From the NCBI GenBank assembly GCA_964187785.1, contig OZ076409.1, positions 5,830,001 through 5,894,000 on the forward strand: 64,000 nt of DNA, given 5' to 3'. Made by a program: the position numbers and the translations under genes. Origin of the DNA: Amphiscolops sp. MND2022. Taxonomy: Eukaryota. Position 1 is the first letter of the stretch; each line of letters opens with the position of its first letter. Below the pieces are notes generated by a model. It was not told the origin of the DNA. It saw only the letters and a program-made list of their open reading frames with translations, and ran no database searches. Positions 9,645-40,100 of this stretch are shown in pieces.

Positions 9645-10124
9645 TTATAGATTGTGATGATGTGAAGGCGTTGAAGACACAGCACTTACATGTGCGGGTG
9701 ACATGGAACTACTGGAAACGTTAGTTGCGTTCATGGCTAAAGTAGCTCTCCTTTCCTGTTCGAGAACAATCAACCTCCTAATCTCGTGTTCTTGTGCCAT
9801 CTGCGCATTGAACTGCGAATGGTTGCTAGCCAAAACAGAAAGGTAGTCCTCGGGAATCGAACCCGCGCCACCGGCACCAGGTCTGCCCGCGCCAGATAAG
9901 GCAGCAGCTGCGGCGGCCGCTGGATAGTTGGATAGGATGTTGGCAGCTCCGGCGGTAGATCCGGATCCCGCGGATCCAGCGCCGCCTGGAATGAGGCCAG
10001 CCAGGGCGACCGCTTGTGCCTGCAGCTCTCGTTCCCTCGTGGCCAGCGCATGTGGTAAGCCCAGAGCGAGAGGGTTGTTGCTATTGGCTACGGACACGGG
10101 CGAATTTTGCTGCTGTTGTTGTTG
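9645..10124 (-). CDS. RERE: RERE-like terminal exon (QQQQQQNSPVS...RERELQAQ...PEDYLSVL...HHHNL*)
   Basis: taacag| acceptor; stop TAA at 9645-9647; EDY and Q/E-rich helix resemble the atrophin C-terminus. Confidence 0.82.
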   Translation of the reverse strand, partial: QQQQQQNSPVSVANSNNPLALGLPHALATRERELQAQAVALAGLIPGGAGSAGSGSTAGAANILSNYPAAAAAAALSGAGRPGAGGAGSIPEDYLSVLASNHSQFNAQMAQEHEIRRLIVLEQERRATLAMNATNVSSSSMSPAHVSAVSSTPSHHHNL

Positions 10125-13100
10125 CTGTTATTAGGCCAGAGATGTTAATACAATCAAATAAGTTAATTTATTTTTGTTAATTGGTGGCTTTTCTGGCTAG
10201 TTGGTCTTTTTGGATAGTTTTCAAAGTATTCAAAACAACGTACATTCCTCTTAAAGTAATCATTGGAATACTCCCAAAGAGGTGCCGTAAATCGAGGTCT
10301 GACTATACAGTGTTTTCCGTTTTTTTTTTCAAAAAAATACACTTTTAATCCTCCTCATTTCAATAATGCCTCCTATCAACATCCCTGTTGGGCGGCGGCA
10401 GCAGCGGCGGCCCCCATGGCAGAGAGGATGTTGTTGGAAGTGTGGTTGTTGTAGTTGCCGGTTGCTGCACCCCCGGCGGCGGCCCCGAACGGGGGCAGTC
10501 CCAGCATGGCCGCCAGGTGTGCGTGGTGCTCGTTAGACGCGGCGGCGGCGGCTGCGGCAGCCGAGTGGTTGGATCCCGAAGAGGCGTTCAGCCCACTGGC
10601 AGCAGCCGCAGCAGCCATCGCAGCGGCCGAGTTGTTCTGAAACACGCATTGCAGTGAAATAGTTGTCAATCAAGGTTGTTAATTAAAAAGTTTTTTTCAC
10701 GAAAAATGTTTCTCTCGAAAAATGTTTTTTTTTCTCAAAAAAACTTGAAAATCTTGTTCTTAACTATGCCGACGATTTCGAAATTGGTGAAAGGATTTCA
10801 ATTTCTCGAAAAGAAAAACATTTTTAAATGGTCAATAAAACACAGTTTCAGACACTTCTTTGCAGTTCTTTTTGGTCTAGTTTCTGACTGTTCGAATTGT
10901 TTGGTACTTTTTACCTTTTTCAGATCAGAATATCTCGTGTGAAAGATGGTTTTTCGGAAATTTTCAGTGAAGTGAATGAATAAATTTTTGTACAATGCAA
11001 TAATTGGAAACACAAAAAAATGTTGTGCATAACACATTGTTTTCCACGGTAGTTTTCCCAAGATGGAAAAAACATTATCAACATTTCGTTGAAAAACTTG
11101 TTCAACACTTGGTTCAAACTTGTACCTGACTCTTTACATTTCCAGTTGAATAAAAAATATCTTTTCAGGCGGAGAAAGATAAACCAGAGCCGCATGTGAG
11201 GTGAAGGAGTCAGAAACGGAATAAAATATTGAAATACAAATTACGTACTTTTTTGTCATTTGGTAAATTTTGGACTATTTTTGGCTATGATTTCTCCCAT
11301 CCCAGTCATACTATTTTGATGTAATAGCACACATAGGACGCCTAATACGGCGTAGAATGACTGTGAAAAAATTCGTTCGAACCGTATGGATAGTTTTTGA
11401 GAAATTTGACATTTTCACTGAAAGGTCGGAAAAAAATAAGCATAAGTAATCGAAAATTTTTTCCGACTCCTAAAAATTCAAGTTTGTTAATTATAGTTTT
11501 TTCCACGGAAATGTTTCAACAAGTTTTTCAACGAAATGTTGATAATGTTTTTTCCATCTTGAGAAAACTACCGTGGAAAACAATGTGTTATACACAACAG
11601 TTTTTTGTTTGTTTCCAATTACTGCATTGTACAAAAATTTTTTCATTCATTTCACTGAAAATTTCCAGATATCATCTTTCACACGAGATTTTCTGATCTG
11701 AAAAAGGTAAAAAGTACCAAACAATTCGAACAGTCAGAAACTAGACCAAAAAGAACTGCAAAGAAGTGTCTGAAAAAAGTGTTTTTTTAAATTGTTTTTT
11801 AAAATGGTTTTATTCACCATTTAAAATTTTTTTCTTGAGTTTCATTAATTAAAAAAAACACCTTAACAACCTTGAAAACATTGGGACATTTTTGCAATTT
11901 TTGTCAATTTCGGTCACAATTTAAGGCAATTTTCGGCTGTAAGACCGCATTTATTTCTTCAAATGATGAATCAAATATGAGCGATTACAACCAGATCACT
12001 TGTCTAATTGTGTGAGAATTGTGTCGGACAGGCACGAGTGTGCAGTATTGCATTTTAACTCATTGTGAAAGGCCACATATTTTGTGTCAAACGGAAAGTA
12101 CTGAAACTTTGCAGAGACACTGATACAAGAGGGATATTTCAAATTATCTTCACATCACTAGTCTAATTCGTTCGTGTTTTCTTCATTGCCACAGCTTTTT
12201 TAATTTTAGCAAAAACTTGACGTTTGAACTGTTTTTGCTTCACTTTCGAATATGCGAAAGTCTCTCAGAAACTGTCATCGGAGTTTTGTCGATGATTCCA
12301 AGTTCCCAGAAGTAGAATAATATGCTTTTCATCATGAAAGTTGAAAACAATGTGAAGCGTTTTTGTTAAATAAGAAAGCCAATACGATGTATCGTTTCTT
12401 TGGTGTAAAGTAGTCAAACTTTGATCACTTTCCCCTTTTGAAATGAATGGTATTTCTAAGTACTCGAAAAGTGGATTCTAGTCAAGCATTGACTAATTTA
12501 CGTGGTAGATAGCTCTAAGTGCTCGAAAAGTGGATTCTAGTCAAACATTGACGAGTTTACGTGGTACATAGCTCTAAGTACTCGAAAAGTGAATTCTGGT
12601 CAAATATTGACTAATTTACGCTTTATACACGTTACGGAATTGAGCCAATTGTAGGTTGAAATTCTTGACTGGTTTCCACTTTTCTCTAATTACGCTCAAT
12701 GACCAAAATCCGCAATTTCTGATTACACTGTGCATCAAAATTCACGATGAACACACTACTCTGTTTGACTAGAATACGGTTCGTTCTCGTTTTACGGAAA
12801 ATACACTTGATGATAAAATCCACTTTTGCGGCATATGTATCGTAATGATCGTCGTTGAATTTCATGCCGTTTGATCAAAGTTTGCGGTTGCAAAGCGGCC
12901 GTTCAACGCAAAAATTTGAACGGAAGTTAAAATTTTGGCGCGAAAATTGAACTTTCTGCCGTGAAAAGAGTTCCATGCTAAATATCCTATCAATGTCTTG
13001 GTTGAATATATCAGAAGGTTTTACAGTAGAAGTCTTAGTTGCTTCAAAACAGCTCTCGAAACTATCACCTTAATTTCTAAAAACCCTGTGTGGACCATGT

Positions 13101-16100
13101 CATCTATTCACCCTCCCCCCTCTCAAACTGCGGAAATAAGACAGAAGGTTCAAATACCATTATGTCGACATCGTTTGCGTTGAAATTTTGGTCCAATACA
13201 ATAATTGATGTCGCCATAATCCTATTGATTACATTGACTGTCAGTTAAAATCTAATGAGCAACTTTTAATTTGCATTTTTTTCTCAATGAGGCTCTGAAA
13301 TAGGGGCCTTTTTATACGATTTTAGCTGGTTTCAAACGTGAATTTCTACTATTTTGGACAATAATATCAAGAAATTATGGTAATTTGTTTTACATGAAGT
13401 GTCCAAACAGTTGTAGAGACAATCCTCTAGGTATATACATTCAAATAACATTATCTTATTAGTGAATTATTTTTATTCAAGAACAAAATGTGCTTTCGTG
13501 TTGGGGGGAATTCCCAACAAGGTGTACCCCAACAAGGGGTAGATGACATGGTCCCCTGTATTTTTTCAACGTAATTTTACGGATCTTTCTGGGCCTAATC
13601 CAAACTTTGAGCAAGTTTGAGCTCATTCGATATAATTCCCGTTTCTATTATTCATAATGTTCTGAAAGCATTCTGTCATGACTTTGTCATGGAAACACAC
13701 TCTAAAGTAACGTTGAGGAGACAAGAAGATTAACCAATCACGATGACCAGCCAATCACAGGATGACACAACATATGCAATCAACCGCGACGAGGAAGGCG
13801 GACGAGACAGAGATACAGAGAGAGAAGACAGCTTAACTCAGTATAAAACGTTTCACTGAATAACTGATGTAACTTGTAATATTTCTCTTCAACTAATAGA
13901 ACAACTTTATCATCAACAATTTACTTTCTTCACTTTGAGCTGAGTTCTACGAAACAGACCCAAAGCTGAAAATCCGAAATACATCTATAACTGAGTTACA
14001 TAAAATGATTGCTGTAATAAATAGTCTTTGCCGCTCGACTAGACTCGCTGACACATTCAGTCGGCCAATAGCGCCGTCGGCCAATTGACCTAGCACCTTG
14101 ATACGAGCATACATATCATGCTACCTACCTGCAAGGACTGGTGCAGCCCGGCGGCGGTGGCGGGGAAGGGGGGCAAGGGCAGCCCGAGAGCGGCCTGTGC
14201 GGCGGCTGCCTGGGCCACTGCCATCTGCTGGTGCATGTGCAGGTGTAGGTGTGAGTGCTGATGGTGCTGTTGCTGCTGCTGTTGTTGCACGGGAGGGGGC
14301 GCCGCCTGCTGTTGCTGCTGTTGGGCCGCAGCCACCGCAGCTGCCGAGTTCAGGTGGTGCGCAATCCGCGCCTGCGTCGCCAGGTGCTCCTGGATCCTTT
14401 GCTCCTCCTGGAACAAAACAAAAATCATTAGGAAGGGGGTCCCTTTGGTGGAAAAAAGTTTTTGAAAAAGTCTCACAATGCCGAAAAAACTGAAACGGGG
14501 GACCCTTTGGGATCTTTAAACATCCTTTGCTGCTCCTAAAACCACCCACTAACCCATAAATACTCATCAACGCTTTCTCGTGATTCACATTCAGAAGCGA
14601 AAAAATAATTGATTATGATACCAAATGTTGGACCAAATTGGCGCGCCAGGTGGGACCCTTTGAGATTTTTCATCCATTCTGTCGCAAATCATCAAAACAT
14701 TGAAGGGGGACCTTTTGGTGGAAAAAAAGTTTTTGAAAAAAGTCGCACACTGCCGAAAAAACCTAAAGGGGGGACACTGTTTAGTCTCGCCCGGTATTGT
14801 ATGTTCCGCGAAAAAAAAAGGAAAAACCACTTGGTTCAGTTCCTTTTTCCAACAGGTACAATTTGAAATTTTGTAAAACTTTTGGTAGAACTATTTTGGT
14901 CATTTCAGGTGTATCGAAAGAAAACACTGACGAAAAGCCATGACTATTGTATAGTCTTTTCTCTAGAAAAACGCCGACTAAAAATGAACACGGCGCAATG
15001 CAGTAAAACTGGTGTACGTCCAACTCAATCATCTAATCAACAGAAAAAGAGGTGCCCCAAAATGGGTGACCCCGGCAGTGGGCGGCGGCAGTAGCAGTAC
15101 CTGCAAATGACGCATGATGAGCGCGGGGTCCAGGCCAGAGACGTTGAAGCCCGCAGCGGCCGCCGCGTGGGACAGGGCAGCGTTGGGGGTAAGTGCGCCC
15201 CCCGGGGGGTTGCCCATGTTCTGCTGGTTGAGCAGGGCTGCTGTGAGGGCTGCTGCGTGGGCGTGCTGCTCGCTCTGGTGCAACTGGTGGTGCAACGACA
15301 TGGCGGCTGCAGTGCTGGTGGGGATCCCGGCTGCCCCTCCCCCGGGGTGCTGTTGCTGGAGGTTCGCCGTCTCCTTCAGACGCGCAAACAACTCTGCATT
15401 CAGCCGGAAATCGCCTGGAAACAAACAACACATTCTGAGAAGACATTCGCAAAAATTGATGGAAATTAATTTTTACAACTTTTAACGCAAAAATGAATAT
15501 ACCATTAATAAAAAACATGAAAATCCATCATCAAATAATGGCAATCAATGGTTTTCAAAAAATTAAGTTTTTTCACCAGGGCGATTTTTTCATTAGTTTT
15601 TTTTCCGTGATAAGTAGGGTAAAACTAGTTTCGATTAAAATGCAGCTATTAGCCATAGCCACGCTATTGCGTAATTTTTCGTTACTGAAAAATCTTTAAA
15701 AATATCCTAGAAATAAACTACTAATTTCGAAGAAAAAGACATGAACTTGACTAAAATGTACAAATATAAATAATGGAAAGTAACGACATCATTAGAGAAA
15801 TTAATTAATGGAATTTTTAGATATGAAAAATCCATTAATGGAAACCCATTATTGGAAATTAATGTCACAACCATTATTTTTGCGGACCATATGTCTTATT
15901 GTAGACCGACTCCATAAAAGTTCTTTCAAACCGTAAAGAGTATTTGCGAAAATCGAAAAAGTCGAAAATGGCTGTTTTTTGGCCATTTTCGAACTAATTT
16001 TGGCTGTTTCTCACATTCCAGTCATACGAGTTTGATGCCTTTGCACACGCAGGGGCCCCTTTGGGTGTAGAATGACTGTGTAAAATTTTATGAAAATCGT

Positions 16101-19100
16101 ATGGACAGTTTTTGAAAAATTTGAAATTTCCATGAAAGGTCGGGAGGAAAAAAACAAAAAAACGACACGATTGCATAAGTAGTGGAAAATTTTTTCCGAC
16201 TCCTAAAAAACGCAGAACATTCAGTTGATATCGCGAGCGGTTAGAATTGCTTTGTAATTGTCGATTACATCTCCGAACTCTGCCTTTTATCAGTCATGAG
16301 ACCATCATGCATGATACCAGCATAAATTTAGTTACACAATATAGATAGGAACTTGATCTTGTAAATTTGTTCATGACATTCGGCGGTAAGAAACTGCAAT
16401 GCTTCAATAATAACTTTTGAAAGCTTTTAGTGCTCCGTTGATGATCCAATTTTCTATTTTTGTTTGCAAAGGTTGATATTTTGTTGGAACTTTACCTTGT
16501 CCAGCGGCAGCGGCTCGTTCCCTCAGCTGTCTCTCCACAGCGGCCGCCTCTTCGGCCCAGGGGGCACCACCGGCCCCTCCTCCCCCCACAGGGGTGGCCG
16601 AGCCCCCCGCCACACTGCGGGGAACGTGCTGCATCCCCGGGTGAGCGCTTCTGTGACTTGAGGGGGGAATTACTGTGAGTGGAGACGGAAGTTGGGAGCC
16701 CCCACCGGCCGCCGGAATGTTGGGACCACCGGGCAGACCACTGCGCAACCCAGACGGAGTCCTGGAAAAACAAACACTGGATGGAAAAAACCAACACATT
16801 ATGAAGATAGATCATCGTTACTATGATTCTATCAAAAAATCTCCTACGCTAAAATCTAAACCAGAGAATTGTGCTTAGCTCCGTTCACATACCGATAGTG
16901 CCCTGAATGCAGGAGCGAAGCGAGACAGAGCGACGTGACTCATAAAACCAATGTTTTGACTCAAGATTTTATTCGAGAGATTTTAACTAGGATTTTGACC
17001 AAGGAGATTCTAACTCATGAGATTTTGACATGTAACCATATCAGAGAGACCAACTTGATTGATGAATCGCACTCTTGAGTAAAAATTCACACCCGGGTTT
17101 TACTTGAGATGGAAGCAACAACCGAAAACTTCTACCAATAAATAAAACTATTTCTAGTGTATAGTCCGAATACCGAGTAATCCAACCCTTTTTGGTTATA
17201 GTAGTTGTTCCGACACAAGTTGAAATGGAACTTATACAAAACTTGACAGTTCAAATTGAGGCAGCTAGAAAAGCTAAATGAACAAAGACAGTCCAAGTTT
17301 GAGCGTGTTTGAAAACGGGTCCAAAGCGGACTAAAATATTGAAAAAACAAATTACCTATTTTGTCATTTGGTCATTTTTAGTCGGCGCTTCATGGAGTGA
17401 AACGCGACTATTTTAGTGACTCCTTATTAGTCGGCGCTTCATGAAGTGAAACGCGACTATTATAGTGGCTTTTCTTTTTTTTCAATCCACACGAACTGAC
17501 CAAAATAGTTCTTAAAAGTTCTACAAAATATTATTGCACCAAATTGCACTATTTGGTCTAGCGAACTGAACCAAAAGGTTTTTCCTGTTTTCCTGCGTAA
17601 CATACCATACCGGGCGAGACCAAAGGCCCCCCTTTCAATTTTTTTCGGCACTGTGGGATTTTTTTTCTAATGTTTTTTCTCTCCAAAGGGTCCCCCCTTC
17701 AATTTCTTTGATATTTTACAACAGATTGGGTGTTTAAAAATCCCAAAGGGTCCCCCTTTCAGTTTTTTTCGGCACTGTGAGATTTTTTTTCTAATTTTTT
17801 TTTCTCTCCAAAGGGTCCCCCCTTCAATTTCTTTAATATTTTACAACAGATTGGGTGTTTAAAAATCCCAAAGGATCCCCCCTTTCAGTTTTTCGGCATT
17901 GAGACTTTTTTCGAAAATTTGTTTTTTCTCCAAAGGGTCCCCCCTTCAACTGCGACAAAAATGTTGACAATTTCGGAAGTGTCCCCCTTTTAACGCGCCA
18001 GGGACTCGCGCTAGCGGGCCCCGGCGCGCCACTCGGTTCATATTTTTTGCTTTTTCGATTTTCGAGTACTGTAAATTGACACTTGGAAGTCCTTTTGCTA
18101 TTTTTTAGCCTTGGATGTGGCGCCGACTTGGGCCGGTCCCGGCTTGTTGGACTAACTTTGGCTATATTTCTCATATCCCAGTCACATACGATTTTGATGT
18201 CATTGCGCACCCAGGAGAACCTTTGGGTGTAGAATAATGGCTGTACTATGTTTTATAAAAACCATATGGACAGTTTTGAGAAATTTGAAATTTTCATTGA
18301 AAAAGAAGTACGAGTGGAAAAGTAGACGAAATTTTTTCCGACTCCTAAAAATTATATGATTAATTGAGATCGATAAGCCAAAAATGTGAACAAAAATCCC
18401 CGAATGGAACCCCTAGAACAGTTTTGAAGCACCATGTTTCAAAACATACTAACTCTGTTTAGTATTGACACCAGGGATGGGTGATATATATCAAGACTAA
18501 CATGTATTGTGTCTTTTAAGGTAGAAAATGGGCAGAAGACCAGCAGAAATTTGGGACAAACTTGAGCCATCTCGCAAAAAGGCAAAGTTGGTACTAGTGC
18601 ATTTTGTAAAATGCGTCGAAGTTAAATTTTGTTTCAAGGCATTAAAAAACTGTGTGATTGAAATCAGAAAATTATTTTGAAAATATTATTGAAACAAAAA
18701 ATAGTTCATTTTTGAAACGAAACACTGTTTTTATCAAGAAAAATATATATCGAAAATATCATAAATATCATGCAAAAAACACAAAAATATCCGATATTTC
18801 TGATATTAAATTTTTCAAAAAATTTTTGCCAAGCTTGAGTGACAGTGCACAGTGGATGATGCAGCAGCAGTTCACTCACCTAGAGAGAGACAAAGACGAA
18901 TGATGATGAGGGGCGGCTTGATTGGAGGAGGCGGGTGACATCACAACAGGCGAGGAGTTGACCATGCCCATGTGAGACGCAGCACTCACACAAGAGGCTG
19001 AGGAGACGAGGCCGCCGAAAGTTCCCGAGGCCGACTGGGAGACAGGGGTGGTCAGACACCGACTACTGACCAGGTGACCAGACGAGGAGGAGGCAGAGGA

Positions 19101-22100
19101 CACCAACCCCCCGTCCTTGGGAGACGCAGGAATTCTGGGTGAGTCGATATTCTGCACATAAACACACACGTACGTACATGTACTCATTTTACGAAAGAGA
19201 GTTCAAGCATTAAAAGTTCTTATAATCAGGGTCAAAATTATTTCAACTCAAATTTCTGAAAGCTGCAAAAGGCCGCCGCAGCAGCTGCTAGAACCTGACA
19301 GGGAGATGCAAAGAACCTGTCTGAAACTGCGAGCCATTTCCTAAACCCCAATTGAGGAGTGTTTGTTGACGTTGCTTATGACTTTGATGACAACTTTCCT
19401 CGAACCAGATCCGCATGTGCGGTAAAAGAGACGAGTTAGGACTTTTCCTTCTGAATAGTTTGAATCTCACTCATGCGATTGCACATATAAATTTCGCATA
19501 TTAAGCCCTTATACGGTGTAGACAGAATCCATAAAAGTTCTTTCCAATCGTAAAGTCCAAAACTGGCTGTTTTTCGGGATTTTTGGACTAATTTTGGCTA
19601 TGTTTCTCAGATCCCAGTCATACGAGTTTGATGCCATTGCGCACGCAGGAAAACCTTTGGGTGTAGACTGACTGTGCTTAATTTTATAACAACTTTTTAC
19701 CAAAGGGGCCCCCTTCCATTTTGTTGATGTTTTGCAACAGAAATGTTAAAAATCTCGAAGAGAATACTTGACACTATGAAATCCTTCTGCTACTTTTGAG
19801 CCTTAGATATGGCACCGACTTGGGCCGTTCCCGGCTTGTCCAAAATATTAGAAACTAACACTAAAGCTGAAAGGATGTGAAAGTTGAATATGCTCATTAC
19901 AAAATGACCTTTCTTTAGGGTATGACAGCTATTCCGACTCGAATAGCTTCATTCGTACAGAAATCAGCTTTGCACTTCTACGGTTTTCAATATTTTTATA
20001 CACCGGGACCGTTACTGACACTGCAAGAAGGCTCTGCAGCTTGCAGCGATTCGGGCACTATCTCATCATTCAGTTATTAAATTGCCAATTTGAACCCTGG
20101 GCCACCATTCCCGTTGCAGACCAACATAGTTTCGCATCGCACGGTCCCTTAAAAAATTTTCAGATTGAGAATTTCTTTAGACATGATTACCTTTTCTTTT
20201 TTGATATGGACGCCGGTAGTGCTGCTGTTGTTGTTGTGAGAAGTACTTGCACTGTTTGAATGACTACTGCTGCTGTTGGGTTTGGAGTGGAAAGAGGCTC
20301 CGAACAGGGGCTGGCACACGATGTCTGTTCTGGCACAGCTGTTGGTGACAAGAGCAGTGCCAGTCGAGTTGGTGCTGTTAGTCTCTTGGTCAGAGGCGGC
20401 GGCGGAACACCCACGCTTGTTGCCACGGCGCCAGTTTCGCACCAGTTTGAACACCCTGAAACAACACATGCATTGTACATGCATTTGGCTTTCAATTGAT
20501 TCTTTACATTTCTAGTCGGCGCTTTTCCTGAAAAGAGCCGACTATAGTCATGACTTTTCGTCAGTGTTTTTTAAATTTTTTTCAAGACCACCTGAAGTGA
20601 CCAAAATAGTTCTACCAAAAGTTCTACAAAATTTCAAATTTCACCTGTTGGCCCAGGGAACTGAACCAAAAAGGTTTCCCGCGTAACATACAATACCGGT
20701 CGAGACCAAAGGGTCCCCCCTTCAGATTTTTTCGGCACTGTGCGACTTTTTTTCAATTTTTCCACCAAAAGGTCCCCCCTGCAATTTTTTTGGAGTTTTG
20801 CAACAATGGATGTTGAAAAATCCCAAAGGGTCCTCCCTTTCAGTTTTTCGGCATTGTGAGACTTTTTTTCAAAAAAAATCATAAAAGGTTCCAAATTCAC
20901 CAAAACTTTGACATTTTGGAGTCCTTTTGCTGTTTTTGAGCCGTAGATATGGCGCCGACTTGGGCCGGTCCCGGCTTGTTTAAATTCTCATAAATGTTAA
21001 ATTGATCATTTCATTCTGGGTTTCCTTTATCACTTTCGAGACACCTCAGATTAAAAAATTAAAGTTGTATAAAAATTATATAAAACTTTACAAGACTGTT
21101 AGATGATAGAACGTTGACAAAGAAAATGGAATATTTTTTTTGTTTTTGGAATCCGCAACGGAATACTACAATCTTTATCCGAATAGCATTACCTTTGAGG
21201 GATGAATAACAAGAAAAAAATCTTTTTCGGAAGATCAATCACGAGTAGTCCTAAGCAAAAGTACCCTGTAAAAGTCATTTGAAGCTCGAAAAGACACAGT
21301 CCAACATTTTTGATCCAAAACATTTTATATGATGAACAGTTTGAAGTAAATAAATTATCACTTTAACTGGTAGGCAGTCTGGGGAAATATTCCGGTAGTC
21401 TGGGGAAACGCCCAGTATAAAAAACTTGCCACTGTAAGAGTTGGACACTTTTTGAACCAAAATAGCTAAAATTTTCGACCAATCAGATAAGCGCAAACTT
21501 CAGTCGTCGCTTTCGCTTTCGGCGCTTATTCCGTCACTTTCGCTTCTTTTGCGCTTTCGCTTACAAGCGACCTAATTCACTGATAATTGGGATACTGCAG
21601 CACTTAACACTTTGCACATATGATACTAGAGTCCTGTGATAAAAGAATGCAACCCCTAATTAATTATGTTTGGAACACCTAATTTTTCTGCTCATATCTC
21701 TGAAACTATTGATATGCAAGAGAAATGATAAAAGTTTCTCGTAATTTATTCTAGTCTACATTCGTGTTTGTTTGAAAATTGTTTGCAAATATGCCTCATA
21801 TTAGTTTTAAGGCTTCCAAAATAAGAGGAATGTAAACTAGACAAAAATCCAAGAAACTTTTGTTTCTAACATTTTTTGGAAAATTTGACAGTTTTTGAGA
21901 AATTCGCAATCTTAGTAGGCGTTCCCAACTTAATTACCAAACAGGGGTTTCATTCTTTTATCACACGCTTTAACTGCAACTATCAATGGCTTGGAACTCG
22001 ACTGAAAAGAGTACAAATTTAACAACCAGTCAAAAAGAAGCCTCAACAAAATAAGCAGCTTTTGTCGACTGGACTTCTGCGCCAAAATAGCAGCCAGCGG

Positions 22101-25100
22101 CTCAAAATCAGGTGCGTTTCAGCTTTCATTTAATCACACAACATTGTTAGTTCGAAGGAGCTGAAGCTAAAAGCAAACGTGGTGTTTTGCTACAACGCAT
22201 TTTAATAATTCAACTCTATCGTTTCATCTGGTCCAAAATACATTATTCACAACACAACTTGGATTATCGCAAAAAGGTTTCCGAAAACATAGTTGGGAAA
22301 ATTGTTTTGGAAACTTCCCGGAAAAGAGAACCGCAGTATGGGCCAAAAGCATCCAGAGCTTTGATAAATCATCAAAAAACTTTCGATCAGAACACTTTTT
22401 TTTCGTCTTTTTTATCCCAAAATATTCTGATGAAATTTATTTTAAAATACAGAACGAATTATTCCCGCTTTTGTGTATCGTTGCTGCAAGGCTAAGCTAG
22501 ATTATCGTAGCAAAATTGAAAAGAATTTTCGAATAAAAACCCGAGGAACCAAAGTATTCAAATGATCACTCAACTATGTTGCAACTACGAGAGACGCAAG
22601 CGCCGACAATGCCAACCACGGCATCTATATCTTGTGCAGTTTGGGGCCGAAAGGGCTACGGCAAAACGTCAATCCGGGAAAACCTGGAAAAACTGTTTGG
22701 GGAGAAGGGAACGGACAAGCCAGTGCACAGTGGACACAGTTCATCTACACACGGAGGTGAGACACGACACGTTCAACGAATGGAGCAAAATTAGCATAAT
22801 TTATTCCTTGTAGCCTTATTTTCATTTCATGACTTTCACTTTGTTGCACTAGACACTATTTTGTGAGGTATTGATTGATATAACAATCGGAACCAATGCT
22901 GATTTTTACTCGGCGCCGCGATTTTCATCGGGTATATTGATTTCATTTCCTTCCTGCCTTTTTTGTCTTCAAAAGTGAAAATTCGCAATTCACTCGTCCA
23001 GTTTCATGCGCTGGCATGCAGTAAGTCCTGTGTTCGAACCTTGCCAACCCAACAATTTTTTTCTTCAAAAATGAACGTTCTTTTTTATTCGGCGCTTCAT
23101 GAAGTGAAACGCGATTATAATAGTGACTGACAAAAATAGTTCTTCAAAAGTTCTACAAAAAATTATGGTGTCAAATTGAACCATTTCGCCTAGCGAACTG
23201 AACCAAAAAGATTTTTCCTGTTTTTCCGCCTAACATACAGTACGGGCGAGACTAAAGTATCCCCCTTTCAGTTTTTTTCGGCATTGTGAGACTTCGAAAA
23301 AAATTTTAATGTCTCCAAAGGGTCCCACTTCAAATTTTTTGATGTTTTGCAGCAGAATGGATGTTAAAAAATCCTAAAGGGTCCCCCTGGTGCGGCAATT
23401 CGGTCCAATTTCTGGGTTTTTCGGGTACTGTGGAAGAGAATACTTGACACTTGGAAGTCCTTGTACTTTAAAGCCTTAGATATGGCGCCGATTATGCCGT
23501 TCCCGGCTTGTTTGGGGATGAATTTACGTTCATTGCATCGCAAAGTTTCGAGGAAAAAACATCTGCTATTTGCAGGACTCCAAAAACCAGTGAAACCCAA
23601 ATTGAAGAACAAAGTCATGGTGACCTCTAGAGCGTGGTTTGGGCTGACGGCAGACACGATCACCTCATTGGCTAATTCTTATCCAATCACAGTGGAGATG
23701 AAAGAAATGAAGAACAGCTGGTACAGTTTAGAGTCCGAGTACTACTTGAAACAGCTGAAAACAGCGACAGTCATTCTTTACGTCATCGATTCGACTGCTA
23801 GATGGGAACTGCACGAAGAGAGGCCTTTGTTTGAGAAATTTTTGAATATCATTTACGGAAATCAGGTGAGCAATGATTTACCCTGTCTGAGCAAGAGTTT
23901 TGACGAGTCAGTACAGTAAACCCTCGATTATCCGCCACCATCGGTCCAGCGCGAATTATAGCGGATAAGCGAGAGATTTTACTGAAAATAGAAGCCAAAC
24001 ACATGGCGGAGGCGGATAATCGAGGATGGCGGATAATAAAGCGGGACATTTTTTGTCCCGGAAGATTTGTGGCGGATGACCAGTTGGCGGATAATAGAGG
24101 TTTTACTGTACATTTCATCCTATGCAATTTCAACCGTTGCCATTTCAACCGCTCACCATTTCAACCAATAGCATTTTCAACCTTCCGCAATTTCGACCTA
24201 AACTAATTTTGGCTAATGGATCTTAATTAGTTATATAATTATTATAAGCGTTGATACTTCATACATGTATTCAAGAGCGTTTCACTTTGTTCTCCCTTTT
24301 TGCTATAGGGGGGGGGGGGTAGGTATAGTGAAAGAGACCCCAAACTTATACTAAAAGACAGGCCCCATCTTTTCAGACAGGTCCCCCTCTAGCGGTGATT
24401 TTCACCAAGTGCGACGAGGCCCACGCAGAAGCCGACTTCATGGAGGAGTGTTTGGGGCTGACAGAGCGGTCGTGGAAATGCTGGGGCAACATCCCCGACT
24501 ACAGGGTGCTCAAGGTCAGTGATGGTCATTGGACCATGTGTTCTATTCCCCCCTTGTCCCTATCCCCCCCCCAACACGAAAGCACATTTTGTTCTAGAAT
24601 AAAAATATTTCACTGACAAAAGAATGTAATTTTGAAGCACATTTTGTTCTTGAATAAAAATAATTCACTAATAAGAGAATGTTATTTGAATGAATATACT
24701 TAGAGGATTGTCTCGACAACTGTTTTCATGTAAAACAAATTACCATAATTTCTTGATATTATTGTCCAAAATAGCAGAAATTCACGTTTGAAACCAGCTA
24801 AAATCGTATAAAGAGGCCCCTATTTCAGAGCCTCATTGAGAACAAAATGCAAATTAAAAGTTGCTCATTAGATTTTAGCTGACAGTCAATGTAATCAATA
24901 GGATTATGTCGATATCAATAATTGTATTGGACCAAAATTTCAACGCAAACGATGTCGACATAATGGTATTTGAACCTTCTGTCTTATTTCCGCAGTTTGG
25001 GGGGGGGAGGGATGGAATACCCTGTATGGACCATGTCATCTATTCCATCCATACAGTCCATACAGGGTGTTTAGAAATTAAGGTGATACTTTCGAGAGCT

Positions 25101-28100
25101 GTTTTGAATTTACATGAATATAAATACTTGGAGGATTGTCTCTTACAACCCTTTTGACACTTCAGGCAAAAAATTACACTGCTTTTTGATATTATTGTCC
25201 AAAATAGCTAAAATTCACGGTTGGAACACGATGAAATAGTATCAAAGGGCCCCTATTTCAACGCAAATTTTCTCCGCCGTTTCTAAATCTAATGAGCAAC
25301 TTCTAACTTAATAATTCCAAACCAGTTACGTCTCACTCTAAATTGCGTGTGCAGAACCTTCAATCACTCATCCATATGTGTTTTCTACAACTTTGAGGAA
25401 ATGACCATTACGAGTACGCGATTAAATGAAAATTGGTTTAAAAATTGGTTATATGTCGTTTCATCTCCAAAATTAACTCCGGTTAAATCATTTCGGTTGA
25501 ATTAATTTTCAGTGCTCAATAGTTAAAAAGTGTTTTAAAAATTTATCACATTTTCACTGCTCAAGGTCCAGTGCGAAGATCGGATCTCTGATGACATTCA
25601 CATCCCCACCACGCCCGTGTGCAAGAAAGCGTACGACATGCGAAACATCATGGCTACCATTCTCATACTGGCCCAAAACAACGCCCCTCTGGGGTACATT
25701 GGGCACAACGAAGCTACCCATTGAGAAACTACATTGAAACCCATTGAAACTACATATGCAGGGAGCGGATTTTATTGCGTAAAAAAACTCTCAAAATTGC
25801 GCAATTGTGTGCGTAAACATTGGCTCAGATTGCGCATAAAAACTGCATTAAAAGCAAAGGTTTGAGAAGAATTTATTCTGAAATGCGGTTACACCAGGCA
25901 TTAACTGAGTGCATTTTTAGGAGTCAATTTTGCGTATCTGCAATGAAAATTGCGTGGAAATGAAAAAGAGCAAATATTGCGTCATCCTGTGCGTCATTGC
26001 GTGACGCAATCAAATCCGACCTCTGCTACATATTCTGCTACAGTTGAATCCGCCCGCCTACAGTCAACTCCGATCAATTCGTATGCGGATAGTTCGAATC
26101 TTCGTTTAATTCGTATCATGTATCAGAGACCCCCATTTCGCGACGAGCAAAGTAATATCATCCGGAAAATTCGTATTTCTCATTCGTACTAATTTATTCC
26201 GTTCCTAACCATACGAATTAGGCGGATTCGACTGAAATTCGTATAGCTAGTGGCCGAATAGAATAGTACGAATAATGAGAAATACGAATTAACCGGCTGA
26301 TAGTACCGCCGTAGTCGTCGCGAAATGGGGTCTCAGATACATGATACGAATTAAACGAAGATTCGAACTAACCGGAGTTGGCTGAATGCTAGTTGAACCT
26401 TTAAAGGGGTAGCATATTTGAGGCCCGAAAAATTGAGGCCCGAAGCTGTTGTAATTTGAGGCCCGATCATTTCAGTGACTATTAGCGTCAGATAATATTA
26501 TATCAGCCAATATGTATTTAACTTGATTTATTTGAAGAGGTTAGCATATTTGTTGTATGGCTCGGTCGCTTCGCTCCCTTCGCCAAGTAACAACATTGAG
26601 GCATGGCCATACGGCACGTCGCTCCGCTTCGCTTCGCTCCTGCATTTAGGGCACTAGGGGTATGTGATTATAGCTGACTACGTTATCGTAATTAGTTCGC
26701 CGTTGTGTATCACACACAATATTTCGGGCCTCAGATAACATTTCATTATCGGGCCTCAGTTTTTCGGGCCTAAATAAACGTTCCCCTTTAAAGTACTGCT
26801 CGTTATCATCTTAACTTCTCTATTTGAACTTCTCTAGTTTTCTTAACGAGATATTAATTGAAAATTCAAAAGATGTTTTCAAATTTCAACGAGTGGCAAA
26901 TCTGACAAATCTGATAGCTTCAGACAGTGGAATAGGCAGTATTTGTGGACGATAAATCTATACTCTAAGCAGAAATCAGTGGAGAAAACCGCCGAAAAAT
27001 CACAGCAAGAATTTCCGAGGGGTCGAACATACAGACCCGTTGGTCGCTAGACAATAAAACTGAGGAATCATGGACTCGAAAAGAATCGATCAATGGTAAA
27101 TTAGTGGGAAGAATTTGTCGAAACAGATCCATCTGAAGCAAAGCATGGAAAGCGGTATCGAGGAGTAGGGATTAAAAGGAGCGATTCGCTCCCAGCGACC
27201 AAATAGTCGAAAGGCTATTTTCAAGAGCAGGTGATATTTAGCTTCCGAAACGTGCAACTTTACAAAGTGGTACATTGCGTGATTTACTCATACTATAATG
27301 AAGATAATTGAAATTCACTTTTGTTACAAAAGTTTTGCCCGAAAGTAGCGAAAAGGAAAAAGCGAGAGTAGCGACAATTTTCACTTCAGGTAGCGAATCG
27401 CGATCAAAAGTAGCTATTCCATGCTCTGATGTGAAGAAAGGCTGACTGAAGCAAACATGAAATACCGACAACTACACTGAAAATTTGTACACCCTGATAA
27501 ATTCAATTATTATTCTCGCTATCCCGGGATTCCGAGTTCCGTTATCCCGGGAAACCATATTTAATTTCACAATTTTTGCAGATTATATGCTATATATAAC
27601 GATATATAATAACATATAAACAAAAACATTACAGTAGTTTACCTTAGCCCCTGAAAAGGCTTCCTTTGTTTTTCCCCACCACCAACTTTTTAAAGGAAAA
27701 TTTGTGAAAATTTTATAAAAAAAGACTTGAATACAAACCAGAAATCTTCAATTTTATTTCATTTCCAGTGTGACAATTTGGAATTGAGATGCAAACTTTG
27801 TTCACACTATTTTTTTGCGTATGAATTCACGCATTCTTGGGTTGGCCAGAAAGAGTACGTACCGTTTGTTGGGAGACTGTTGGGCGACGATTCTGGAGTT
27901 TGGTATTTGCACTTGATCACTGCACGTGACTGGGGTCGGCGAGGAGGGAGGGGTCAATCCGGAGCGCCCCACGATCACAATCACCCCCGCCGCCGCACTG
28001 GACTCCCCTGAAGCAGCACTACTCATCTGCTCCTCTACACTCATCGGCTTCAATTTTGACGACTCGACCTTATCTTTCACCGATGACGTCACAGCCTTGC

Positions 28101-34100: not shown

Positions 34101-37100
34101 GATAACAGAGAATGTGTTGTTTCAAGACAATTGATATGCCTCGAGAAAAAACCGTGTGGCTCCGGGTGGGTTTCGCCCTAATCTTTGTCGATATTGCATG
34201 TTCTATTTAAGATGATGCGGTTCCATTTTCGGCGGGTTTAGAGAGGTTTTTATCGACAATGGGCCTCGCATATGGAAAACTGAGAAGTTCTCTGGAAGTT
34301 GAGAAGATGTCATTTCTGTTCCGCCAGCTGAACCGTTCAAGCTTCAACATTGAATTTTATAATTTTGACATTTTAACACGTTAATTGCGAATTTTAACAT
34401 GTCAAAAAAGTTTTAAAAAATGTGTGAAATCCAATTAATGTTTTTGACAGTTAAAAATGACAGCCCTGGGTCATTCATATTTAATACATTCAAGGAGGCT
34501 CTTCAGATCTTTTTATCTTTTAATCATTATCTTTACCCAACAAACCCGATTCATATCGTCGAAAGAATTCCATAGTAGTGATTATTTTAAGGTTATTATT
34601 CGAAGAAGTTAGCATATTTGTTTTAAGGCTCGGTCGCTTCGCTCCCGTCGCCAAGCAGCAACATTGAGGCATGCCTATATGGCACGTCGCTCTGCTTCGC
34701 TTCGCTCCTGCTTTTAGGACACTAGGGGTATATGTATGTGCACATAGCTGATTAGATTATGGTAATTAGTTCGCCGCTTGTGCCGTTTTCATTTTACTGG
34801 AATTTGATTAGCTCATACCTTTTGTTTAGCACGCTTGTAAACTTCAGCATTATTGTCGAAACTGCTTCGAGACTTTCGTTTCTTCTTCTGGGTCGACGGA
34901 CTCTGCACCGGAGACTCCTGAAAACAACAAAACTTTCTTTATTCTCCCATAAAACTTTCGGACACAGAGTTGAAAGCTAGACTAGCAAAATTCTCCAACC
35001 CTCGGCCCAAAAATTGAACTCGCCGGGAACGGCCCAAGTCGGGGCTCCGCTCAAGGTTTTCTAAAAAGTTTTTTTAATATGCAAAAAGACACTGTCAATT
35101 TTACAGTGTCGAAAAATACCCGAACGCATAAGACTCGAAACTCACTTTTTCCCAACTGCAAAAAAGTCTCATAGTGCCGAAAAAGGAGCGATAAGCTCAC
35201 CAAACGCTTTTTTTCTAACTGAAAACATTTTTAAAGTGAACTTTTCAAAGTACACCTTGATGAAAGTCTCTACTATAATCCGAAAAATCTATGAAAGCGC
35301 CCCTTTCTATTAAAACCCAATTTTAGCTTTCGTTTCCAGTTTCATACGTATACGGTTTCCGAGTCTTATACGTATCCTTTGAAGTATTTTTCAGCACTAA
35401 GAAAGTGATATTTTTTTTAAAAAAAAAGTGTCCTTTGCATATTCGAGAAACTTGAGCGGGGCGTCGACTTGGGCCGGTCCCGGCTTGTGAAAATATTGTT
35501 CGAGTCAAACCTCAAAAAATATGAAACTAGAAGCAGAATGCTTTTGCACACAACCGACAGAACTGTTTTCTTGACAATTAGGTTCTCGTCAAACTGACTA
35601 CTAGCAAGAATACTATACTCAACTCCGCTTATAACGATTGCCTGGGGACCGGCGTTTTTCAATAGTTATATCCGAACATCGTTATAGGCGAAAATCGTTA
35701 TATACTAGCATCGTGGCCCGGACCATGAAACTATCGCTATAACCGGAATATCGTTATAAACGTAATCGTTATAAACGGAGTTGAGTGTACTAATACAACT
35801 CACAGGCAACGAATTGGCACTGTTTGCCCGTGCAGCGGCAGAGACTGAGTTGGTTCCACTGGGGGCGCCGGTTTTGGCGGCCTCCACCGGCTTGAAGAGG
35901 TAGGGCGAGGGGGCCTCGGCGGTCTTGGGTAGGCGCCCGTACTTCTGGTAGTCGAGGCGGCACTCGAAGCACAGCAGCAGTTTCTCCTGACCCCAGTGCA
36001 CGAAGCTCTTGGAGGCCGTGGTGCCACAGTGCTTGCAGCTGAAGGCAGACTCCGAGGGGTCCACGATACTGTCGTCAGACTCCACGTCTGTTCCTGAGTT
36101 GCCAACTTCTGCAACAAACAAACAAACACGGTAATGGGTGATGATTAGGCTTAGGATTTATATGTATATCCATATTCCATGTTTTTCCATATTTCGCCTT
36201 ACATAATTTTATTTCCACAATGATAAAAACTAATCCATATTTAGCTGAATTGATACATTTCTGAGAAGATATTATGCTATTCATGAACGCCCCAATGGTC
36301 AGTGTCGACGTGGAGCGAATTGTTTCGCAATACGGAACCATATTGGAACCTCAGAGACAGCGACTGACTGTTGAGAATATCAAAAATGATGCGCTGGTGC
36401 TATTTAATAATTTCAGTTAAATGCTGATTGTTTGAATTCGCATATTATGGGGCATAAGTTTTTGTTTCGAAGATTTAGTCAGTTAAAAATGGTAATTTTT
36501 GTCCAAATTTTGGCCAAATTTTGTATCGCTGTATATTTCGCTGTTTTGTTCTCCATATTTTATTGCATATAAATCCTAATGCTAGTGATGATCATCAGTC
36601 GGGGAAGAAGTGGGTTGGTTTCTTTCATCACTTTGTGGGTTGGTTTTTTCGGCACTGTGCGACTTCGAAAAATTTTAATTAACTCAAATTAAATTGCAAT
36701 TTTTTCAACCTTGAGGGTTCTGACATCGTTAATTTTTTCCCGCTAAACACTACACCCCTAATATCAAAATCGCTATTTCGCTGAAAAACTTTTTCTTCGA
36801 ACTATTAAATGTTTGGATTCAAGTATATTTCAAAATTCAATCATAACTTAATTCAATTTTTGCTAGAAAAACGAATAGAATTCTCATTTTGTGTGAGTTT
36901 TGCGAATATAAGAGTTGGAATTTTCGGAAATTCGTTTTAAAAATAGTTGTCACTAATAGAATCACTGAAAAAAAGTCTTGCACGGCCGCTAATTTGCTGA
37001 TTAGCGATGTCAAAACTCTGCTGTTGATAACTACAACTTGAAGGACTAGTATTTGCAAAGCTTTCAAGCCTACAGTGCTATCCCCAAAAGTCAACATAAA

Positions 37101-40100
37101 TTTTTTCAAGCTTCTTTGGAAAGCTGCTTCTAGTTTTCTGCATTGAAATGCTTCATTTCGAAATTTTGTCTTTAGTGATTTTATTTTTGATTTGAGAATG
37201 AGGAGCTAGCAAGCAGCTTTAAACCTATTATTGACAGAAGCGGTGAAAAAGATAGGCAAATTTCGCAAGTTCCATTAGAAAACGGGAAACGTTTCTGTTC
37301 ATATTTCTGATGGGAGAGGGAAACAAGCCGGGAACGGCATAAGTGGGCGCCATATCTAAGGTTCAAAAATAGCAAAAGGACTTCAAAGTGTCGAAGTATT
37401 CTCTTCTACAGTACCTGAAAAACCCAAAAAGTTGGACCGAATTGGCGGGCCGGGGGCCTGCTAGCGGACCCCCAGCGCGTTAAAGATGGGAACAGTTTCG
37501 CATTTTTTAGTCGGCGCTTCATGAAGTGAAACGCGACTATTATAGTGACTTTTTTTTCTATCCACACGAACTGACCAAAATAGTTCTGCAAGTTCTACAA
37601 AATATTATTGCATCAAAATGCACTATTTGGTCTAGCGAACTGAACCAAAAAGGTTTTTCCTGTTTTTCCGCGTAACATACCATACCGGGCGAGACCAAAG
37701 ACTCCCCCCTTTCATTTTTTTCGGCGACTTTTTTTTCGAAAAAAATTTTTCCCCAAAGGGTCCCCCCTGCTTTTTTTTGATGTTTTGCGACAGAATGGAT
37801 GTTAAAAAATCCCAAAGGATCCCCCCTTTCAGTTTTTTTCGGCATTGTGAGATTTTTTCCCGGAAATGAAAATTTTTGTTTTCTTCAATTTTTTCATGTT
37901 TTGCGACAGAATGGATGTTGAAAAACCTCAAAGGGTCCACCCTTTCAGTTTTTCGGCATTGTGAGACTTTAGCGCGCCAGGGGCTCGCGCTAGCGAGCCC
38001 CGGCGCGCCACTCGGTCCATTTTTTTTGAGTATGTAATTTTTTCGAAAATTTTTTTCAAAAAATTTCGATTTTCGAGTACTGTAAAAGAGTACTTGACAC
38101 TTGGAAGTCTTTTTGCTATTTTTGAGCCTTGGATATGGCGCCGACTTGGGCCGGTCCCGGCTTGTTATCATCCATTGTTGCAAAACATCAAAAAATTGAA
38201 TGGGAGACCCTTTGGTGAAAAAAAAAATATTTCGAAAAAAGTTTGACAATGCCGAAAAAATCTGAAAGGGGGACTCTTTAGTTTCTCCCTGTATTGTATG
38301 CTACGCGGAAAAAGAGGAAAAACCTTTTTGGTTCAGTTCGCTAGGCCAAATGGTTCAATTTGACACCATAAAATTTTGTAGACCTTTTGGTAGAACTATT
38401 TTGGTCACTTCAGGTGTATCAAAAAAAACTGACGAAAAGCCACAACTATAGTCGGCTCTATTCAACAAAAGCGCCGACTAAAAGAGAAAACAGTTATTGT
38501 ACAATGTGTATGTGTAGTGAGTAGTGGTGGTATGTAACAGTAAATGACTACAATACTGACGTGAGGAGAGTATCTTGGAGATCCTGGCGACTCCGTTGTT
38601 GCCGTTGTTCTTCTTCTTCCCGCTGAAGGGCTTGGGAGTGGAGGCGGTCTTGGCGGCCGGGCGGCTGTTCTGCACGCGGGTCGCCGCCCCGAACGAGGAG
38701 CTGCTCTGCGCACCCGGCGTCTTCTTCCACACGTAGTAGAACTCCACCAACTCCGCCTGCCAAACGAAACGACATTGTCATCATTGCATTGTATTCAACA
38801 TTTCCTCGGTAAATACACTGAGTTTGGAAATGAATTTCGGAAAATTCCAATTTTTACACTTGTAAAACTCACACAGCATGAGAAATTCTAGTCTTTTTCT
38901 CTTGCAAAAATTGAATCATTGGATTTTGAAACATACTTGAATTCGAACATTTAATAGTTCTTCCCAAGAGTAGGGTTTTTGAGACGCCACGCTAATTGTT
39001 TTGGGCTGTAGCAATGCGCTATTTCTAATTTAGTTCATTTTCCCAACAGAGGAAATTGACTCAGAGACATATAAATTTCCAAAGCGGAATTATTAGAGCA
39101 TTTCAATTTCTAAGCGAATAGCAACGCGCTAAAAGGAAATTGCAATTCCCAAATTCCTTTAATGCTCAGCCAATAGGAAAAAGCCACGCGACAGTAGAGC
39201 TGTCCTGAGCTGGAAAGAGAAATACAGGTACCCATTCCAACGCGGAACACTGAGAATTCACTCGCTCTCTTCTCTTCTCTTTCTTTCCTTACTTTGCTCT
39301 CTGACTTAAAACTCTCCCTTAAATTCAGCTGACAAAGAGTCCTGATTTTAACTTAGAAATATTCTAAAGTCTGAAATGCTCGACTTAGAAAATTATTCTA
39401 TCTTATAAACACCCTATTCTATCTTATAAACACTTCTAATTTACCTTCACTTTATAACAATTTTTTGAGACTTATTGCAAAGTTAGAAAGCGAGTCCTAA
39501 GTAACTAAAATCACCGGTTTACAACATCTGGTGCGACCAGAGCAAAGAACAAAATCACTCCGCAATTTGTACGACCATAAAACCGAGCGTACAAAATAAA
39601 TCTCTTTTCCCTGTGGTGGGTCCTATTTTGCAAAACTGAAATATTTAAAGCAAATATTTCTGAGAAAATTCAAATTCTTGTTTTTGCAACACTTAGTATC
39701 TAAAGCAGATACTAAACAAAATTTCAATTTTTGCAACATTTAGTAATCTAAAGCAGATACTAAACAAAATTCATACTCTTGGTACTGAGTCTAAACAGTA
39801 TCCACTAACGCTAGCTTCGGTATTAGCGTGTGCGGGTTCCGTGGAAGAAATTTATTTCTGACACACGAGTGTTCCTTAAATTGCACGATCCCAGCGAGGT
39901 TTCGCAAGAAATTGGAAAGTCCATATTTCACCTCGCCTGCTGCCTTGGAATCTAGTATTCCGTGTTAAGGCTTAAATACGCAGAAACTGTCCGTTTCAAA
40001 GGAGCAACAAAACTCCAAAAATATATATTTGCGAAAGGATCAAAGAGATTCCTTTGTGAACAATTTCTATATGTGCATTGGAGCAAAGAAACTTCTACAC

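Follow-up and report, generated by a model that had tools for sequence, protein, structure and literature searches.

The gene described here lies in a 64,000-nucleotide stretch of contig OZ076409.1 from the acoel Amphiscolops sp. MND2022 (assembly GCA_964187785.1, positions 5,830,001 to 5,894,000 of the forward strand), which we call the window and whose own numbering is used throughout. The gene has four exons, and its product is probably an atypical member of the Arf/Arl branch of the small GTPases. Five sequence motifs characterise the small GTPases, and the models of their families depend on these. In our preferred reading, to which we assign a probability of about 0.55, the gene encodes a lineage-restricted and very divergent Arf/Arl protein that binds nucleotide and carries out neither canonical switching nor canonical hydrolysis. 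The evidence supports the view that the protein is a strongly derived form of the known Arf-family G domain, with a D/E-x-x-E version of the G3 motif.

The gene is built of four exons with GT-AG introns on the plus strand, at 22576-22756 (better 22609-22756), 23576-23865, 24377-24514 and 25566-25724, as read directly from the sequence. The exons splice in frame to a protein of 255 amino acids if translation starts at 22576 and of 244 amino acids if it starts at 22609. Their lengths of 181, 290, 138 and 159 nucleotides correspond to 255 codons plus a stop codon with fitting phases, and the translation adds up accordingly (60 residues, one split codon and 96, 46 and 52 residues, 255 in all). The splice signals are GT at 22757, AG/G at 23574-23576, GT at 23866, AG at 24375-24376, GT at 24515 and AG at 25564-25565, with a second possible AG for exon 4 at 25570-25571. 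An in-frame upstream ATG at 22576-22578 would add 11 residues (MLQLRETQAPT) to the N-terminus. This architecture agrees, in sequence and translation, with the original prediction, which had described four in-frame GT-AG exons encoding about 255 amino acids and had noted that a list of open reading frames (ORFs) holds the gene only as fragments.

Relatives of the protein were gathered by a word-indexed search with the exon-2 peptide, which yielded three longer proteins, and then by further searches and cluster look-ups. The orthologues are the Symsagittifera roscoffensis protein LOC134853177 (277 amino acids, P0007), the Convolutriloba macropyga protein XP_075262259.1 (248 amino acids, P0014), the product of a 966-nucleotide JGI contig (P0006) and ORFs on large ENA contigs of a close relative (P0008/P0013 and P0009/P0012). 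The collection also includes a genomic ORF of C. macropyga (P0005) and the window's own exon-2 ORF (P0010/P0015). The proteins of S. roscoffensis, C. macropyga and two further relatives cover all four exons and agree with all three junctions, and the predicted splice junctions are in this respect confirmed by orthologous proteins. Two details of the gene model are also settled by the comparison. The acceptor of exon 4 is 25566 and not 25572, the option left open in the original prediction, because every orthologue reads ...LK/VQ... and keeps VQ directly after the exon-3/4 junction. The conserved product is better given as 244 amino acids beginning with the methionine at 22609, because the three alignment entries that reach the N-terminus (P0007, P0014 and P0008/P0013) begin at the window's second methionine (MP...) and MLQLRETQAPT is absent from all of them. 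The originally proposed ATG at 22576 is thus present but is not the conserved start, though either ATG may be used.

Conservation of the encoded protein is mosaic. A core of 167 amino acids is 78-84% identical without a single gap in three species, with 118 of 167 columns invariant, whereas identity falls to 28-38% in the linker after helix 1, which contains insertions and deletions, and to 33-47% in the C-terminal tail. Moreover, similarity to the unspliced ORFs of the relatives stops exactly at the exon borders. Because the core is conserved gap-free beside a freely varying linker and the similarity ends at the exon borders, there is good evidence for a functional protein-coding gene. Beyond this group of animals, the searches traced no relative of the protein. 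An exhaustive phmmer search with P0007 against 1.84 billion representative proteins returned five proteins at E <= 0.001, of which four belong to related acoels or to the window itself, as its own ORF. The fifth (P0011, with Calx-beta-like repeats, E 6e-4) was rejected as a chance match on WYSLD. A scan of metagenomes with P0006 produced a single contig (L065), in which ARWELHEERP recurs but the context is not that of a GTPase; it was likewise set aside as a chance pattern match. These searches support a gene that is recognisable solely in convolutid-type acoels, and the label of a lineage-specific gene given to it earlier appears justified. In the literature, no paper joining acoels with the ARF family or with pseudoGTPases was present among the matches listed.

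Which parts of a G domain does the protein retain? Its motifs were placed with the family alignments, with a profile-profile comparison (hhalign) against Arf ORFs and with the ARF1 and ARL16 rows in the supplement of PMC9250359. Exon 1 (22609-22756) encodes strand 1, the P-loop and helix 1. The N-terminus (MPTTASIS...) places 12 residues ahead of the first P-loop glycine and has neither an amphipathic helix nor a glycine at position 2. The G1 motif, or P-loop, reads GRKGYGKT (22645-22668), fits GxxxxGK[ST] and is kept in all rows that contain the N-terminus, with GRKNSGKT as the Convolutriloba form. Helix 1 is followed by a variable insert of 30-45 residues. Exon 2 (23576-23865) contains the end of this variable linker, interswitch-like strands, the degenerate G3 motif, helix 2 and strand 4. 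In this exon, FGLTADTI (23638-23661) stands opposite the Arf interswitch signature IGFNVETV and is invariant in the four rows that cover the stretch. At the place of the G2 threonine of PTxGF(N), the segment aligned by hhalign, with low local confidence, is RAWFGLTAD, in which tryptophan takes the position of the threonine.

The G3 motif of the protein also departs from the Arf pattern. Exon 2 contains PITVEMKEMKNSWY, which includes EMKEM (23695-23709); this pentapeptide replaces DxGGQ and was matched to WDVGGQ by eye and by a low-confidence section of the hhalign alignment. The family consensus at this site is [DE]xKEM in five of five sequences, which read VEMKEM, VELKEM or [VI]DFKEM. The Walker-B acid is kept, as glutamate in three sequences and aspartate in two. 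By hhalign and by eye, the G3 glycine has become glutamate and the catalytic glutamine methionine. The exchanges of threonine for tryptophan, glycine for glutamate and glutamine for methionine are plausible correspondences. The segment KEM..SWYSLESEYY, which spans the degenerate G3 region, is almost invariant. Past G3, the protein is Arf-like again, with W..(E)YY and then ...ILYVIDS; strand 4, VILYVIDS (23770-23793), lies opposite (L/I)I(F/Y)VVDS of the Arfs in the high-confidence part of the hhalign alignment. Exon 3 (24377-24514) encodes strand 5 with the G4 motif, followed by helix 4. G4 reads TKCD (24404-24415), which is NKxD with threonine in place of asparagine, is invariant in all covering rows and is aligned by hhalign with NKQD. 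Exon 4 (25566-25724, with the stop codon at 25722-25724) encodes the last helix and a variable tail, and no G5 motif is recognisable in it.

Most of the motif anatomy in the original prediction is borne out by this analysis: GRKGYGKT, VILYVIDS and TKCD are present, the short N-terminus is devoid of Gly2, switch I is expanded by the long insert after helix 1 and G5 is not recognised in the exon-4 region. Its central statement, that the G3 motif DxxG is missing, is correct, with the refinement that the acidic residue is retained as glutamate or aspartate and that the losses are those of the glycine, the G2 threonine and the catalytic glutamine. An overlooked exon cannot restore DxxG. The G3 site is internal to exon 2, an exon that all orthologues read without interruption. 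Furthermore, P0007 searched against the 1.07-Gb genome matches the four exons alone, which makes the gene single-copy in this genome and leaves no further exon to supply a DxxG.

The assignment to the Arf family is based on profile and feature comparisons. In hhalign, the acoel family aligns with eight intronless Arf-type ORFs of the same genome with a probability of 93.4% (E 2.5e-7) from strand 4 to helix 4, and at a lower alignment threshold it extends collinearly from the P-loop through to the last helix (helix 5), 153 columns in all. The probability is 29.6% against six Rab-type ORFs of the same genome, 0.1-0.2% for the reversed family and at most 1.6% for 20 column shuffles. With P0007 as with P0014, the best feature score in the ESM Atlas (0.95) falls on an Arf cluster (PF00025), and the ten best named matches share one family or clan according to the Atlas's own note. 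In the Atlas structure search with P0007, the aligned part is Arf in nine of ten rows, with template modelling (TM) scores of 0.50-0.60 when normalised by the query. The Atlas's model of P0007 is of moderate confidence, with a predicted TM score (pTM) of 0.65 and a predicted local distance difference test score (pLDDT) of 0.63. A hidden Markov model (HMM) of the family, run against 1388 ORFs of GTPase loci, places two Arf exons at the top with a marginal E value of 0.028, which is too weak to name the closest paralogue.

Several observations weigh against this assignment. The Pfam Arf model (PF00025) matches neither the four exon peptides nor P0005-P0007 at E <= 10, and the only Pfam matches that do occur are weak ones to P-loop families (AAA_22 with E 0.02 and MMR_HSR1 with E 0.083). 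A six-frame search of the genome with PF00025 gave 66 matches, none of which is in the window. Among PDB sequences, phmmer with P0007 and with the family profile retrieved no GTPase, the best match being Nup160 at E 0.37. AlphaFold2 models are poor, both from a nine-row alignment (pLDDT 43.0, pTM 0.44) and from P0014 alone (pLDDT 41.5, pTM 0.40), and give no confirmation of the fold, so that the fold evidence comes from the Atlas's own model with its moderate pLDDT of 0.63. The confidence of the alignment is also low around G2 and G3. A Foldseek search of the first AlphaFold2 model against the PDB returned no match at E <= 0.001 and listed methyltransferases at the top with TM scores of 0.2-0.3; it was discarded because the model was too poor. 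The original Arf/Arl assignment is thus favoured by profile-profile alignment with its controls and by the ESM Atlas neighbours, but the Pfam HMM, PDB sequences and AlphaFold2 fail to place the protein. On balance, we consider a derived Arf-family G domain likely.

In the Ras superfamily, the G2 threonine and the G3 glycine together form the universal sensor of the gamma-phosphate, and we know of no switch that works without both residues. The acoel protein retains the P-loop, TKCD, the Walker-B acid and an Arf-type block of strand 4, helix 3 and strand 5. Because G1, G4 and the acid are under strong constraint, guanine nucleotide and Mg2+ would still be bound. Because the protein has lost the catalytic residue (glutamine) as well as the threonine of G2 and the glycine of G3, the gamma-phosphate would no longer be coupled to switch I or switch II, and GTP hydrolysis by the canonical route would be impossible. 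We propose that the protein acts as a constitutively nucleotide-loaded adaptor, that is, as a pseudoGTPase of the class II type, and that it would be controlled through its amount, its localisation or its partners and not through a cycle of guanine nucleotide exchange factors and GTPase-activating proteins (GAPs). The replaced switch-II segment may serve as a fixed binding surface, since it is near-invariant.

Is the gene a descendant of a known Arf paralogue? ARL16 is described in PMC9250359 as the most divergent ancestral Arf paralogue, linked to cilia and rapidly evolving, with RELGGC as its G3, no N-terminal helix, often an N-terminal cysteine and a variable insert after helix 1. The same text reports that the G motifs of this fast-evolving protein are abrogated in several taxa, and the leech orthologue reads HELNCQ with the GG lost. 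An acoel orthologue of ARL16 that has diverged past detection by family models would refine our preferred reading, and we regard it as a possibility, though not a likely one. The likeness to ARL16, as its features are given in PMC9250359, covers the missing N-terminal amphipathic helix and Gly2, a conserved cysteine four residues before the first P-loop glycine (as in MCLLLGATGVGKT of human ARL16S, by eye), a variable insert after helix 1 that is 3-4 times longer in the acoel protein, glutamate at the Walker-B position in three of five acoel sequences and the absence of the catalytic glutamine. ARL16 is also the most often named neighbour in the ESM Atlas: clusters labelled ARL16 make up six of the 30 nearest feature neighbours for both P0007 and P0014, and they have the highest TM score by target (0.76) in the structure list, a normalisation that favours short targets. 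Acoels are ciliated, and ARL16 is therefore expected in them. A G3 of the ELGG type was not seen in the 50 of 66 genomic Arf matches that were inspected, and a degenerate DNA motif for ELGGCMGPIW has one match in the genome, which carries three mismatches, lies in a non-GTPase ORF and looks like chance. However, the failure of six-frame, exon-by-exon searches to find a canonical ARL16 is weak evidence, because such searches can miss genes. The comparison with ARL16 was, moreover, made by eye and with automatic cluster names, and the stretch after G4 (...LGLTERSW) is nearer to ordinary Arfs than to ARL16. ARL16 has retained both glycines (RELGGC) as well as the PTxG threonine, its G5 can be recognised and Pfam Arf matches it, whereas the acoel protein has [DE]xKEM without GG, tryptophan at G2 and no G5 and is unmatched by Pfam Arf. 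Other very divergent Arf paralogues of the genome, discussed below, could equally be the source. Somewhat more doubtful still is the fuller proposal that an acoel ARL16 descendant has given up both gamma-phosphate sensors, with G3 turned into an RGK-like D/E-x-x-E, and has kept guanine-nucleotide binding. If it were true, the ancestral role of ARL16 in ciliary protein traffic would be possible with a non-switching, constitutively loaded G domain, and the acoel gene would be a natural experiment.

The remaining readings concern what the domain does and whether it is a G domain at all. A working GTPase switch with non-standard chemistry, in which the conserved glutamate of [DE]xKE or a residue of a partner or GAP activates the water and other residues sense the gamma-phosphate, seems unlikely to us, but it has real points in its favour: G1, G4 and the Walker-B acid are strongly conserved, the almost invariant KEM..SWYSLESEYY fits a functional switch II and not decay, and an alternative hydrolysis mechanism has been suggested for ARL16 in PMC9250359. 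It is opposed by the loss of both the G2 threonine and the G3 glycine, which jointly sense the gamma-phosphate. The opposite extreme, a nucleotide-free scaffold that preserves only the shape of a G domain, would explain why G2, G3 and G5 are unrecognisable, and class I pseudoGTPases of this kind exist (PMC12722892); yet GxxxxGKT and TKCD vary little, if at all, between species, which is unexpected if nucleotide binding has been abandoned, and this makes the scaffold reading quite improbable. Even less probable is a P-loop nucleoside triphosphatase outside the Arf family whose Arf likeness stems from generic Rossmann-like or P-loop features. The weak P-loop matches in Pfam, the empty PDB sequence search, the methyltransferase rows of Foldseek and a cluster labelled Gtr1/RagA at rank 2 in the Atlas point that way, but the Foldseek rows come from a model too poor for use, and in the genome the Gtr1_RagA model reaches no genes other than RagA and RagC at E <= 1e-5. 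The contrast between the Arf and Rab probabilities and the controls in hhalign, the collinearity from the P-loop to the last helix with TKCD at the NKxD position and the Arf identity of nearly all Atlas structure rows, together with the single family or clan of the ten best named matches, speak against it as well. Finally, a decaying pseudogene or a chance chain of ORFs might be suspected from the fragmentary ORF list and from two introns filled with repeats. This suspicion is already contradicted by intact frames in at least four species with every junction in phase, by the indel-free core beside a freely varying linker and by the end of similarity at the exon ends, and we consider it extremely improbable. 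The constitutively loaded Arf/Arl adaptor remains the reading that we prefer.

In the RGK proteins (Rad, Gem/Kir and Rem), long extensions at both the N- and the C-terminus bind calmodulin, 14-3-3 proteins and calcium-channel beta subunits. According to PMC4081519, they have DxWE for DxxG, a disordered or non-conserved switch I and a departure from the canonical switch. The acoel protein shares with them the identical replacement of the G3 glycine by glutamate, but RGK proteins belong to the Ras family and not to the Arf family; the likeness is functional only, and there is no sign that the motif is shared by descent. A second group for comparison consists of G domains that are short of hydrolysis residues: class II pseudoGTPases such as Rnd1-3 and RhoH bind nucleotide and do not hydrolyse it, and ARL10, ARL13A/B and ARL15 have no switch-II glutamine, as stated in PMC12722892. 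In these proteins DxxG and the G2 threonine are retained and the family models still detect them, whereas the acoel protein has lost both sensors. A third comparison is offered by the Amphiscolops genome itself, which contains a cluster of lineage-specific, intronless Arf paralogues at G000:C6:27.0-29.2 Mb (L003, L006, L015, L020, L025 and L029). They too are Arf-like and divergent, and some have degenerate motifs: L025 is without GxxxxGK[ST] and DxxG, and L029 is without DxxG. They nevertheless match Pfam Arf with E values of 1e-12 to 1e-42, retain NKQD or NKED as well as an Arf-type C-terminus, and lack introns, unlike the window gene, which is unmatched and has introns. The Arf family of Amphiscolops has been expanded and relaxed more than once. 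Divergent Arf-like genes that resist classification are described as common in eukaryotes in PMC9250359.

The acoel gene illustrates the extent to which an Arf-type G domain can diverge: G5 has gone, as have the threonine of G2, the glycine of G3 and the catalytic glutamine, and Pfam does not detect it, yet it is strongly constrained and its P-loop and guanine-specificity motif (TKCD) are intact. It would provide a conserved natural D/E-x-x-E G3 outside the RGK proteins and a useful case for testing whether many Arf-like proteins work as nucleotide-loaded adaptors and not as switches. Should it prove to be ARL16 of acoels, it would have a direct bearing on the way in which ARL16 works. For annotation, it offers a name and a probable fold for proteins that two acoel genomes list as 'uncharacterized'. 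These conclusions concern one small lineage, and the functional reading is drawn from sequence.

The introns of the gene differ in content and in their presence among the relatives. Intron 2 (23866-24376, plus strand) is common to the relatives, whose genomic ORFs (P0005, P0008 and P0013) run into the intron after YG... Intron 1 (22757-23575, plus strand, GT...AG) consists to more than half of a high-copy repeat (about 23078-23513), for which a first look at the genome gave 7437 candidates with 79-85% identity. The exon-1/2 junction is read through in one ORF in P0008/P0013 of the close relative and in P0005 of C. macropyga; intron 1 is thus absent in two relatives. Intron 3 (24515-25565, plus strand, 1051 nucleotides) is filled by a high-copy repeat at about 24635-25015, with 3749 first-look genomic candidates at 82-84% identity, and a partial second copy. 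P0009/P0012 of the close relative read across the exon-3/4 junction, and intron 3 is absent there. Because the genomic ORFs of the relatives cross both junctions and break only at intron 2, introns 1 and 3 are, by sequence comparison, specific to the lineage of the window. Intron 3 is also bounded by an exact 11-nucleotide direct repeat, TGCTCAAGGTC (24507-24517 and 25558-25568), in which AG/GT gives both splice sites. Taken together, the features of introns 1 and 3 look like recent gain through an insertion of repeat-rich DNA accompanied by target duplication. A separate observation concerns intron 2, which contains at 23911-24111 an element resembling a miniature inverted-repeat transposable element. 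It has inverted ends of 27 nucleotides (23911-23937 and 24085-24111) that are 93% complementary, with 147 nucleotides between the arms, and carries internal GGCGGATAA repeats.

The surroundings of the gene on the minus strand most likely belong to a co-repressor gene. An ELM2 exon lies at 51933-52139 (PF01448, E 6.7e-5, 24.1 bits, above the cut-off of 21.7 bits). The start of a SANT/Myb domain is found at 48011-48241 (PF00249, E 0.0098, below the cut-off) and continues, by eye (...FYYVWKKT), in the minus-strand ORF at 38481-38777. A GATA zinc-finger exon is located at 35705-36157 (PF00320, E 8e-6, 25.8 bits, just under the cut-off of 26.8 bits); a homologue search with this exon found nothing. 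GC-rich minus-strand ORFs rich in glutamine, alanine and histidine flank the GTPase gene at 27.8-33.1 kb and at 9.6-20.6 kb, with the ELM2, SANT and GATA exons at higher coordinates. Those at 9645-20570, also rich in serine, have a GC content of 0.48-0.64 against a background of 0.30-0.40, match no Pfam family and would represent the 3' exons of the host gene. Because host-like ORFs and exons on the minus strand lie on both sides, the GTPase gene is most likely nested in antisense within an intron, at about 20.6-27.8 kb of the window, of this ELM2-SANT-GATA gene.

The original prediction had named the host gene RERE. The nested antisense position is supported by the minus-strand exons and flanking ORFs, but the label itself is unconfirmed, since the Atrophin-1 domain was not found: the Atrophin-1 model has no match in the window and only low-complexity matches elsewhere in the genome. 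MTA-type genes have the same order of ELM2, SANT and GATA domains. We take RERE to be plausible, as yet unconfirmed, given the atrophin-like character of the long glutamine- and histidine-rich tail. A host-gene ORF at 14090-14515 (minus strand) encodes a polyglutamine tract followed by the histidine-rich run HHQHSHLHLHMHQQ and has no match to Pfam Atrophin-1. This run presumably resembles an atrophin/RERE motif, a likeness that is unconfirmed in view of the negative Pfam result.

Mobile and repeated DNA is also present in the introns of the host gene. Open frames of 271, 135, 802, 309 and 521 amino acids at 40060-46370 on the plus strand contain protease-like (DTGA) and reverse-transcriptase-like (YIDD) motifs by eye and probably represent a Ty3/gypsy-type retroelement in a host-gene intron. 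A dispersed repeat with ORF-like copies on the minus strand occurs across the host-gene introns at 17.4-18.3, 20.6-21.0, 28.4-29.4, 37.5-38.3 and 51.6-51.9 kb. Its copies share peptide words such as KGGPFGEK, LWDFSTSI and KLKGG, and intron 1 of the GTPase gene is in part similar to it.

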